Shown: positions 2,975-5,398 of the stretch, piece after piece | Layout of the letters: each line of letters opens with the position of its first letter | Numbering within the stretch: the stretch's first letter is position 1 | Source of the DNA: Escherichia coli | Lineage (GTDB): Bacteria > Pseudomonadota > Gammaproteobacteria > Enterobacterales > Enterobacteriaceae | Length of the DNA stretch: 64,000 nucleotides | Direction: 5' to 3' (one strand) | Assembly: GCF_003334255.1 (NCBI RefSeq) | Contig: NZ_QOWU01000011.1 | The notes under the pieces: model-generated | Told to the model about the DNA's origin: nothing | The model's input: the letters and a program-made list of their open reading frames with translations, nothing else | The model's database searches: none | Translations under genes and position numbers: made by a program

Positions 2975-3299
2975 TGTTGCACTCCTGAAAATTCGCGTTA
3001 GCCACGCTCACTCTGGACTGCGACATCGCCAGGAAATCAGAGGTGACGTAGGGTGTTTTTTGCCGTTTTTATAGGTCGTTCGCCGAATACGGCGCGTGTT
3101 TATATCTGGCAATAGCAGTATAAAAAGCGCGCCATAGCGGCTCACCGTGCAACAACACAACATTAATGCGTTCAATGAGGCCCGATTTTGGCATTAGCCC
3201 TGGACGGTGGAATCCACTTCACGGAAATGAAAACAAGAACAAGAAAGGAAGGGTTAAAACGAAGAAATAAAGAAGAGTATGAAATGGATCGCTTGACTC

Positions 3300-3356
3300 C
3301 AGGCAAACGCCAGTAAAAATCCGCGCTATGAAGCAGTTTTTACTGGCATTTGCCTG
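3300..3356. repeat. 20 bp inverted repeat (19/20 complementary arms, 17 nt spacer) in gudP-yqcA intergenic region
   Basis: Left arm caggcaaacgccagtaaaaa (3300-3319), right arm tttttactggcatttgcctg (3337-3356). Confidence 0.6.
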
Positions 3357-3408
3357 AAAAGATTCGATTCAGCACCGCTAAAACGACATTTACCGCTCGC
3401 TGAACATA

Positions 3409-3858
3409 TCAGGACAACAGCGTGCCCCACTGTTCGACCCACGGATTTGATTCCGTTTCCGGTTCCGGGTTCTCACTGGCGTCAATCAACAGCATTTCGC
3501 CAACCCGCAGAGCGCTCTGTTCCTGCAACAAGGCATCGAACTGTTTGCCGCCATTGCAGAAATTCACATAACTACTGTCGCCGAGCGCAATCACGCCATA
3601 ACGCAGATTCGGCTGGAAGCCCAGACTATCTTTGATTCCCTGAAAGAGTGGCACAATGCTATCAGGAAGGTCGCCCTGCCCGGTCGTGGACGTAACCACC
3701 AGAACATACTTATCCTGATAGGGCAGCCAGTCGCTTAATTCAGGATCTTCAAATACCGTTGCTTTGTGGCCCTGCGCGGTCAGAATCGCTTCCGCTTCTT
3801 CGGCCACTAACAGTGAATTCCCGTACATGGTGCCGACAAAAATACCAATTTCCGCCAT
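3409..3858 (-). CDS. yqcA: Flavodoxin-like FMN-binding protein
   Basis: 149 aa [29 protein letters not shown]..., short-chain flavodoxin pattern. Confidence 0.9.
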
Positions 3859-5029: not shown

Positions 5030-5398
5030 AATAAAAAAAGGGAGCACTGTATTCACAGCGCTCCCGGTTCGTTTCGCAGCATTCCAGCTACTTTTGTTGC
5101 TCCCTGCTCATCCTTGACAACTTTTCCTCTGGCCTTGCGGCCAATCGTTCATCCTGAACTATTGCTTCCTGCTCACACCACCCCGATGTGATACTTCATC
5201 CTGAAGTGTCCCTGGCCTTCCTGACCCACCGAATCATCCTGACCGGTTCTCATTCTCCATCCTGGAGGTGTCCTTTAACGCGTCCTGCGTCATCCTCTTC
5301 GCTTCATCCAGAAGCCTTTCCCTGAAACACCATCCTGGTGTGTCCTGCAGAAGTGTCATCATCCTGATGTTCACTTCGTTGTCTGACTCCCTGTCGAC
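5030..5398 (-). ncRNA. csrB: CsrB small RNA (CsrA-sequestering), about 369 nt
   Basis: Plus strand carries about 9 copies of catcctg (reverse complement of CAGGAUG) plus further GGA variants at irregular spacing in 5100-5370; 5' end reads GUCGACAGGGAGUCAGACAACGAAG on the minus strand; ends with hairpin GGGAGCGCUGUGAAUACAGUGCUCCC plus U7 (plus-strand 5030-5066); no ORF. Confidence 0.85.

Follow-up and report, generated by a model that had tools for sequence, protein, structure and literature searches.

A candidate 3'-end stem-loop of the yqcC-truC-yqcA transcription unit in the yqcA-gudP spacer of Escherichia coli

Background

Between the genes yqcA and gudP of Escherichia coli lies a long and nearly perfect inverted repeat, and the question raised by this locus is whether the repeat is a DNA site that serves the glucarate operon or a structure that functions in RNA, and in the latter case to which transcript it belongs. 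The repeat was found at positions 3300-3356 of a window of 64,000 nucleotides, this being the whole stretch of E. coli DNA that was analysed (contig NZ_QOWU01000011.1), and its sequence in the window is CAGGCAAACGCCAGTAAAAA, a spacer of 17 nt, and TTTTTACTGGCATTTGCCTG. The initial annotation offered three readings, namely an operator through which CdaR or a similar dimeric regulator would control the gud operon, an RNA structure in the gudP leader, or a palindrome unrelated to REP elements, and it did not regard the repeat as an obvious intrinsic terminator. These readings are weighed below, together with others, using RNA folding, comparison of orthologous loci, and published maps of transcription termination.

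Results and discussion

Genomic context and copy number

Coordinates of E. coli MG1655 are obtained by adding 2,919,126 to those of the window. The repeat lies downstream of yqcA and upstream of gudP, just as the initial annotation had stated, and both genes are on the minus strand. The flavodoxin gene yqcA (3409-3858, minus strand) is the last gene of the yqcC-truC-yqcA cluster, and its stop codon is located 53 nt upstream of the hairpin described below; gudP occupies 1622-2974 on the minus strand, and the neighbouring truC, yqcC and CsrB RNA (5030-5389) are encoded on the minus strand as well. The RefSeq annotation is empty between yqcA and gudP, and no paper naming yqcA together with gudP was found in the literature searched. 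The spacer separating the two genes is 434 bp in length, and across nearly the whole set of 5,426 complete E. coli genomes its identity is 99-100%.

The arms of the repeat (3300-3319 and 3337-3356) were confirmed to be complementary at 19 of 20 positions. No other inverted repeat in the 64 kb window combines a match of at least 19/20 with a spacer of at most 40 nt, and 30 Markov shuffles yielded none at 18/20 or better. The half-site pattern was matched twice in the window, by the two arms themselves, where about 0.01 matches were expected by chance. Each of the 5,426 complete E. coli genomes carried exactly one copy. The repeat is therefore real, and is neither a chance match nor a dispersed repeat; since it is single-copy, an origin from a dispersed repeat or a mobile element was rejected. 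Elements of the REP/BIME type occur in many copies with a shared consensus, and this element was found at one place per genome throughout the 5,426 genomes, so that the phrase "REP-unrelated palindrome" is true of it but uninformative. Extrusion of a DNA cruciform was also considered as the active form, and was judged unlikely because a 17-nt spacer disfavours extrusion.

Structure of the repeat on the yqcA-sense RNA

On minus-strand RNA, which is sense for yqcA, the 5' arm of the hairpin is CAGGCAAAUGCCAGUAAAAA (3337-3356), which includes an A5 tract at 3337-3341, and the 3' arm is UUUUUACUGGCGUUUGCCUG (3300-3319), the first five bases of which form a U5 tract at 3315-3319. The single mismatch between the arms becomes a G·U pair in this RNA. 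The full predicted stem-loop extends from 3297 to 3359 on the minus strand and contains, in the minimum free energy (MFE) structure, 27 pairs including G·U and one bulged A. The 63-nt core folded at -39.3 kcal/mol (z = -10.1) and a 121-nt context at -47.9 kcal/mol (z = -6.9). When 70-nt windows were slid along the sense strand from yqcA to gudP, the repeat reached -40.3 kcal/mol against a mean of -16.8 kcal/mol (sd 5.7) and was the only strongly structured spot between the two genes; no other terminator-like site was detected on the sense strand of this interval.

The 17-nt spacer (3320-3336, minus strand) holds a weak inner hairpin, CUGC-N8-GCGG at 3321-3336, which has 4 bp, an 8-nt loop and an energy of -3.9 kcal/mol, and which is flanked by the A5 and U5 tracts, both of them inside the arms. 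Beyond the U5 tract the 3' arm continues for 15 further complementary nucleotides. The full 27-bp stem is followed by GAGUCAAG, which has no U-tract, and the inner hairpin is followed by A and UUUUUAC. The observation in the initial annotation that no clear U-tract follows the repeat accordingly holds for the full stem but misses the U5 tract within the 3' arm. A terminator was set aside there too quickly, given this tract and given that the homologous element in other taxa is flagged as terminator-like, although it is correct that the E. coli repeat has no U-rich tail. With 4 bp the inner hairpin falls below the 5-pair rule of the terminator scan used, a rule that homologues elsewhere pass or nearly pass.

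Six Escherichia lineages were compared, and in every one the yqcA-sense RNA folded better than its antisense counterpart, the difference being 3.4-11.5 kcal/mol. Across 31 orthologues the sense strand folded better in 21 and the antisense strand in 10 (Wilcoxon p = 0.06, from sequences that are not independent). In the Escherichia lineages the advantage of the sense RNA comes from the imperfect positions, namely the arm mismatch together with one inner pair, which read as G·U in minus-strand RNA but as C·A on the plus strand. This strand bias favours an RNA read in the direction of yqcA over a DNA site or a plus-strand RNA.

Position relative to the gudP promoter

The inferred gudP core promoter is located at 3117-3159 on the minus strand. 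It comprises an invariant TATACT -10 element (3117-3122), a -35-like hexamer GTGAGC (3140-3145) in the arrangement GTGAGC-17-TATACT, and the conserved block TGTGTTGTTGCACGGTGAG (3141-3159). The centre of the repeat lies about 218 nt upstream of the gudP start inferred from TATACT, which places the repeat outside the gudP transcript. Of the earlier proposal of an RNA structure in the gudP leader, the first half was retained, RNA structure being the best reading of the repeat; the second half was given up, as the structure falls in the yqcA 3' UTR, upstream of the conserved gudP promoter. Barring an unmapped upstream promoter, a structure in the gudP leader is unlikely. A covarying repeat in the gudP leader is located at approximately 3007-3045.

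On the plus strand, an open reading frame at 3227-3316 (MKTRTRKEGLKRRNKEEYEMDRLTPGKRQ) ends in the left arm and was considered as a small protein gene. It was rejected because the frame is not conserved, its length ranging from 3 to 82 aa across orthologues and being 10 aa in one E. coli lineage. In one genome, PGAP called a 42-aa hypothetical protein in the region of this frame.

Comparison across the Enterobacteriaceae

A YqcA scan yielded 80 loci from different species, and the order yqcA-then-gudP was kept in most of them. The intervening spacer was found in a long form of about 420-515 nt and a short form of about 280-390 nt. Long-form spacers have a module in common, which is present in Escherichia, Salmonella, the Citrobacter koseri, C. 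amalonaticus and C. sedlakii groups, Raoultella, Kosakonia, Phytobacter, Superficieibacter, and others. Four parts make up the module: a hairpin in the position homologous to the repeat, a TTTTCAY that usually follows this hairpin, the conserved motif GTCAAGCGAYC..TTTCAYAYTC, and a spacer of 65-66 nt, constant in length and free in sequence, which reaches to the first conserved gudP promoter block. Conserved sequence was also found directly 5' of the hairpin (CTGAATCG, window 3365-3372), and a GGCA-N2-TGCC core in the 5' (yqcA-side) arm was invariant in 22 orthologues, even in those where its partner is unpaired.

The arms change in sequence between taxa with their pairing kept, as in GCCAGTAAAA/TTTTACTGGC, GCCTGTAAAA/TTTTACAGGC and GCCCG.../...CGGGC. 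RNAalifold returned no consensus hairpin for a broad MAFFT alignment of 22 sequences, an alignment that is not structure-aware and that includes several taxa without the stem; support for the manually specified E. coli structure was therefore counted directly. On the same 22-sequence alignment 73.9% of cells were paired, compared with 32-48% when the partners were slid by 1-3 columns, and the covariation score was 0.185 compared with at most 0.12 for the slid partners. One pair was seen as A-U (7 sequences), C-G (7) and U-A (3).

The long stem is very strong in Escherichia and in several Citrobacter, where z is -5 to -10. Superficieibacter and Raoultella have a modest stem and Salmonella a weak one (z about -0.5 to -1), and about 12 of 30 orthologues that carry the module have none. 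The outermost five pairs of the stem (CAGGC/GCCUG) occur in Escherichia only. The core seen in Citrobacter, Raoultella, Superficieibacter and others is a short hairpin with an energy of -4 to -9 kcal/mol and U5-7 directly behind it, and the Citrobacter homologue was flagged by a simple scan as terminator-like on both strands. Since most genera have such a short hairpin with U5-7, the 20-bp arms can be read as an Escherichia-specific lengthening of a weak terminator.

The module is missing from Enterobacter, the C. freundii group, Buttiauxella, Pluralibacter, and others, all of which keep the gudP promoter blocks. In short-spacer genera (Enterobacter, the C. freundii group, and others) its place is taken by a REP-like palindrome, GCCGGGTAAGGCG..CGCCACCCGGC. 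A G+C-rich hairpin, CCCTCCC..GGGAGGG, is located right after the yqcA stop codon in all genera except Escherichia. Escherichia has lost this stop-proximal hairpin, and the repeat is thereby left as the only structure 3' of yqcA; the loss fits with the strengthening of the second hairpin in Escherichia. Conservation in enterobacterial gudP upstream regions, on which the initial annotation proposed to check the repeat, is thus seen in part: the module occurs in many genera and its arms covary, but it is absent from genera with the short spacer.

A regulator-binding site was weighed against these comparisons. According to this reading, CdaR or another dimeric regulator binds the repeat as a DNA operator of the gud operon, and the appeal of the idea lies in the near-perfect dyad symmetry upstream of gudP, in a GGCA-N2-TGCC core that stays invariant regardless of partner pairing, and in the fixed spacing that joins the adjacent GTCAAGCGA motif to the gudP promoter blocks. 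The half-site nevertheless does not occur between garP and garD or between degP and cdaR in MG1655, where its best matches were 12/20 in garP-garD, which is the chance level, and 10/20 upstream of cdaR; the search upstream of garD and garPLRK that had been suggested for the half-site accordingly gave nothing above chance. Comparison of the gud spacer with the gar spacer, by shared 8-mers and by local alignment, likewise gave results at or near chance. An operator is expected to be conserved wherever its promoter is conserved, and the module is gone in genera that keep the gudP promoter and the blocks upstream of it. Furthermore, the arms covary and their sequence is not retained, the 20-bp arms are paired up to the loop and far exceed typical operator half-sites, and the centre of the repeat is at about -218 from the inferred gudP start. 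An operator for CdaR or another dimeric regulator at this position is, on this evidence, extremely improbable.

The 3' flank and Rho-dependent termination

Directly 3' of the hairpin on the minus strand is a 74-nt putative rut region (3223-3296), which is 80% pyrimidine, C-rich and G-poor (C/G = 4.0), and essentially unstructured, with 70-nt windows over the approximately 80 nt after the hairpin having MFE values of 0 to -5.6 kcal/mol. The conserved motif TCAAGCGAYC..TTTCAYAYTC falls within the first 22 nt of this region. C exceeds G in this flank in 31 of 31 orthologues carrying the module, though the sequence of the flank itself is not conserved.

A Rho termination region has been reported at this locus by Adams et al. 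in 2021, with its best-scoring coordinate at MG1655 2922118 on the minus strand (window 2992; class 'orphan' in Supplementary file 2 of PMC7815308), a Rho score of 3.98 and p = 9e-8. DirectRNA-seq reads upstream/downstream were 114/23 in untreated cells and 112/90 with bicyclomycin (PMC7815308), which corresponds to a rise of the downstream/upstream ratio from 0.20 to 0.80 when Rho was inhibited, based on low counts at coarse resolution. The scores were calculated over 800-nt windows and the best position alone was reported, so the resolution is roughly hundreds of nucleotides (PMC7815308); window position 2992 lies 18 nt before the gudP ATG and about 300 nt downstream of the hairpin. Sense-strand transcription across the spacer is stopped largely by Rho, and most of it enters gudP when Rho is blocked. 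In E. coli the repeat therefore does not work as an efficient intrinsic terminator, and the Rho-independence expected of a canonical terminator of that class was not observed within the limits of these windows and counts. It is not certain that the Rho region can be assigned to yqcA transcripts; its source could equally be basal transcripts of the gudP leader that end prematurely. The curated Term-seq tables (PMC7815308) list no 3' end between MG1655 2921000 and 2922999, which is weak evidence since yqcA is weakly expressed. TERMITe and SMRT-Cappable-seq gave no matches for yqcA, gudP or the locus coordinates.

Variation within Escherichia

Seven E. coli genomes were fetched from among the 5,426, and six of them differ from the window. 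The substitutions in these six fall in the loop and in the flank towards yqcA, none of them in the arms. One further strain-level difference was a rearrangement breakpoint 9 nt outside an arm, in an E. coli strain in which the hairpin is intact. Among Escherichia species and lineages the loop is hypervariable, with changes in 12 of its 17 columns and two unrelated loop versions, and the arms vary in 7 of 40 columns compared with 63 of 377 columns for the remaining intergenic DNA, which is about equal. Three mismatches were found in one Escherichia lineage (L002).

Such a pattern raises the prospect that the repeat is a neutral or nearly neutral quasi-palindrome, that is, a decayed terminator whose arms have been kept or perfected by intrastrand template-switch mutation during replication; quasi-palindrome correction is an established process. 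Consistent with this are the restriction of the long stem to certain lineages and its loss in many genera, the mismatches of L002, the conservation of the Escherichia arms at no more than the level of the surrounding intergenic DNA, and the hypervariable centre, which suggests a mutational hot spot. Several observations speak against it. The arms are invariant in the six sampled variant genomes of E. coli, in which single-nucleotide differences fall in the loop and flanks; the mismatches are consistently G·U on the sense strand, a preference not expected from template switching; the flank keeps its skewed composition from genus to genus; and E. coli has no other candidate for a 3' structure of yqcA. 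A neutral quasi-palindrome is for these reasons considered unlikely.

A 3'-end stem-loop and competing RNA readings

The explanation that best accommodates these results is that the repeat acts as minus-strand RNA, as the 3'-end stem-loop of the yqcC-truC-yqcA transcription unit; it is probably an RNA hairpin that marks and protects the 3' end of the yqcA mRNA ahead of a zone of Rho-dependent stopping. The conserved core, with its A-tract, short hairpin and U-tract, may be regarded as a weak two-way intrinsic terminator, which in Escherichia would have been extended by flanking complementarity to a stem of 27 bp. The inner U-tract may halt a minority of polymerases, the inner hairpin appearing too weak to stop most of them. 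The majority would proceed into the unstructured C-rich, G-poor stretch at 3223-3296, where Rho would load and subsequently terminate transcription before or around the gudP promoter, or over it. The tail would then be trimmed by 3'-to-5' exonucleases back to the hairpin, which would protect the yqcA message and set its 3' end. In such an arrangement the inducible gudP promoter would be shielded from read-through.

Elements of this type have been described by Dar and Sorek in 2018, who found that Rho-dependent 3' ends sit just after stable stem-loops lacking a U-rich tail, that such stem-loops are directly followed by C-over-G sequence, at which Rho probably loads, that PNPase and RNase II trim Rho-terminated RNA back to the stem-loop, and that REP elements are the protectors at a quarter of Rho-dependent 3' ends (PMC6061677). 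The repeat resembles them in being a stable sense-strand stem-loop shortly after the stop codon, without a U-rich tail, with an unstructured C-over-G flank and with bicyclomycin-sensitive read-through at the locus. By analogy, its anatomy, together with the REP-like substitution in other genera, would seem to match that description point by point (PMC6061677). It differs in having A and U tracts and in a 27-bp stem that is much longer than usual.

Some features argue against the 3'-hairpin model. From the alignments, the arms appear no more conserved than other intergenic DNA of Escherichia, and a strong long stem is confined to Escherichia and some Citrobacter. The A-tract in the repeat is at odds with protective hairpins, which usually have none upstream (PMC6061677). 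The flanking motifs GTCAAGCGAYC..TTTCAYAYTC with their fixed spacings to the gudP promoter blocks (65/66 nt and 73 nt) fall outside the model, as does the invariant GGCA-N2-TGCC core of the 5' arm; the conserved motif, the core and the spacings may be part of gudP control or of a Rho/NusG function.

Other known systems were also compared. Two-way intrinsic terminators resemble the core as it is found in most genera, where a short hairpin stands between an A-rich run and a run of U5-7. Unlike such terminators, the E. coli element has an inner hairpin of just 4 pairs and a U-tract that is paired inside a longer stem, its apparent read-through is about 80% with Rho blocked, and the genes flanking it are codirectional and not convergent. 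REP elements that stabilise mRNA 3' ends are likewise extragenic palindromes located after a gene that could block exonucleases, and a REP-like palindrome occupies the homologous place in Enterobacter and the C. freundii group; unlike REP, the repeat is single-copy, lacks the REP consensus and has an A/T-rich centre.

A third comparison leads to a distinct reading. In the sib/tI region of phage lambda, as reportedly described by Schmeissner et al. in 1984, the U-tract of a terminator is contained in a longer dyad, and the full duplex can form in read-through RNA only. The repeat has its U-tract nested in the same way, although it is chromosomal and not of phage origin. If retroregulation of this type operated here, through a weak terminator nested in the longer dyad, RNAs stopping at the inner U-tract would end in a short nuclease-resistant hairpin, whereas read-through RNAs would form the 27-bp duplex, in which a putative RNase III cut would sever the yqcA message from the RNA downstream of it and expose it to decay. 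The frequency of termination would in that case set both the stability of yqcA mRNA and the insulation of gudP. The anatomy is suggestive, as U5 lies inside the 3' arm with 15 more complementary nucleotides beyond it, the 27-pair stem exceeds the duplex of about 22 bp that RNase III requires and accommodates, and the extension is derived and maintained in Escherichia. The inner hairpin of E. coli is, on the other hand, so weak (-3.9 kcal/mol) that few transcripts would stop there, and no regulated antitermination is known on the yqcC-truC-yqcA unit. Retroregulation of the sib type is considered quite unlikely here.

The repeat was finally considered as the terminator, or a structural part, of an unannotated small RNA, which might be either a fragment derived from the yqcA 3' UTR, with the conserved stretch CUGAAUCG..GUUAGC, or a plus-strand transcript that leaves the gudP control region and ends at the two-way terminator. 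Weak hints of such an RNA are the conservation of CTGAATCG directly 5' of the hairpin, the terminator-like character of the Citrobacter core on both strands, and a promoter-like TTGACT-16-AAAAAT on the plus strand at 3293-3320. A search of Rfam 15 with permissive thresholds (E up to 5), covering the window and five orthologous loci that included Salmonella, Citrobacter, Raoultella and Superficieibacter, returned CsrB only and left the yqcA-gudP spacer empty in all of them, which counts against a small RNA of a recorded family. No conserved minus-strand promoter was found, the plus-strand RNA folds less well and the open reading frame on that strand is not conserved, and the curated Term-seq tables have no entry for a 3' end at this site (PMC7815308). 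A small RNA at this site is very doubtful.

With the 3'-end stem-loop as the preferred reading, the repeat, which is single-copy and moderately conserved, is best filed under a kind of element that is already known, a 3' stem-loop at a Rho-dependent gene end that descends from a weak intrinsic terminator, of which this is an unannotated member.

Conclusions

The element represents an ordinary kind of gene boundary and will be unsurprising to specialists. The repeat, tempting as it was as a candidate CdaR operator, can be dropped from that role for want of support, and the cross-genus comparison points to the real control elements of gudP, namely the blocks between about 3117 and 3232 and the leader repeat at about 3007-3045. 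A palindrome that is unannotated in E. coli K-12 thereby gains a testable role, as the 3' boundary of the yqcC-truC-yqcA unit and in the insulation of the glucarate operon. For the Enterobacteriaceae, the locus may serve as a small example of how a weak intrinsic terminator was lengthened in one genus, exchanged for a REP-like palindrome in others, and backed by Rho.

Variation within and beside the inverted repeat

The loop (window 3320-3336) of the inverted repeat in the yqcA-gudP spacer (3300-3356) is hypervariable within Escherichia, where 12 of its 17 columns vary. Two unrelated loop versions, CTGCTTCATAGCGCGGA and CTTGCAAATGTGACGGT, occur between identical arms, suggesting a multi-base replacement at the centre of the palindrome. 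The left arm is overlapped by a plus-strand ORF (3188-3316) with a TTG start, which PGAP called in one or more E. coli genomes as a 42-aa hypothetical protein, WP_001296328.1 (L090, 219-347). The reading frame showed no conservation across genera and is probably spurious.

In two E. coli genomes, 2014C-4135 (L089) and EC6563 (hit H15), the gudP-facing side of the spacer has been rearranged or lost; in 2014C-4135 the breakpoint is located 9 nt beyond the arm and the hairpin is intact. Elsewhere in the window, the CsrB small RNA was identified at 5030-5389 (minus strand) by a full-length Rfam match of 380 bits, as expected for this region of E. coli.

Structures downstream of yqcA in other genera

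In Enterobacter and the Citrobacter freundii group, the hairpin module, which comprises the repeat homologue and its flanking motifs, is replaced by a REP-like palindrome (GCCGGGTAAGGCG..CGCCACCCGGC) located approximately 20-60 nt past the yqcA stop codon (loci L008, L016, L025, L030, and L037). A different, G+C-rich hairpin, CCCTCCC-N5/6-GGGAGGG, lies directly 3' of the yqcA stop codon in nearly all genera with a long spacer (L007, L009, L019, L021, L023, L024, L056, and others); it carries a U-rich tail in Salmonella only and has been lost in Escherichia.

Conserved elements upstream of gudP

Four conserved elements are arranged at fixed spacing on the minus strand upstream of gudP (3117-3297). 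The block GTCAAGCGA (3289-3297) lies 65 or 66 nt before TTTCATTTCCGTGAAG (3217-3232), which in turn lies 73 nt before TGTGTTGTTGCACGGTGAG (3141-3159), and the last of these precedes an invariant TATACT (3117-3122). TTTCATTTCCGTGAAG, TGTGTTGTTGCACGGTGAG, and TATACT are retained also in genera without the hairpin, and these three are the better candidates for a CdaR/CRP control region and a -10 element.

A pyrimidine-rich stretch of the spacer (3238-3269, minus strand) resembles a stretch upstream of garD in MG1655 (approximately 7173-7205 of L082, the gar region). The alignment of ATTTCTTCGTTTTAACCCTTCCTTTCTTGTT with ATTTCTGCGTTTAAACTCCTGACATTCTTATT scored 27, while the best of 200 shuffles reached 26, and this apparent resemblance, seen in E. 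coli only, is marginal.

The gudP leader

A second inverted repeat is conserved on the minus strand of the gudP leader (3007-3045), approximately 60 nt upstream of gudP in, for example, L070, L080, and L025. In the orthologue comparison it took the form TCATTCTGA-N20/21-TCAGAATGA in Enterobacter, Raoultella, Buttiauxella, Atlantibacter, and others, and CCTCTGA..CAGAG(T)G in Escherichia, Salmonella, and the Citrobacter koseri group. The concerted variation of both arms points to a role in the control of gudP, either as a structured leader RNA or as an operator. The inferred leader also contains a small G+C palindrome, CGCCGAATACGGCG (3081-3094), which was flagged as terminator-like on the plus strand only and is kept in Escherichia and not conserved in other genera.

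A published Rho termination region maps to window position 2992 (MG1655 2922118, minus strand), 18 nt upstream of the gudP start codon. Read-through from yqcA is one possible source of this signal; another is attenuation of the untranslated gudP leader by Rho when cells are not induced.
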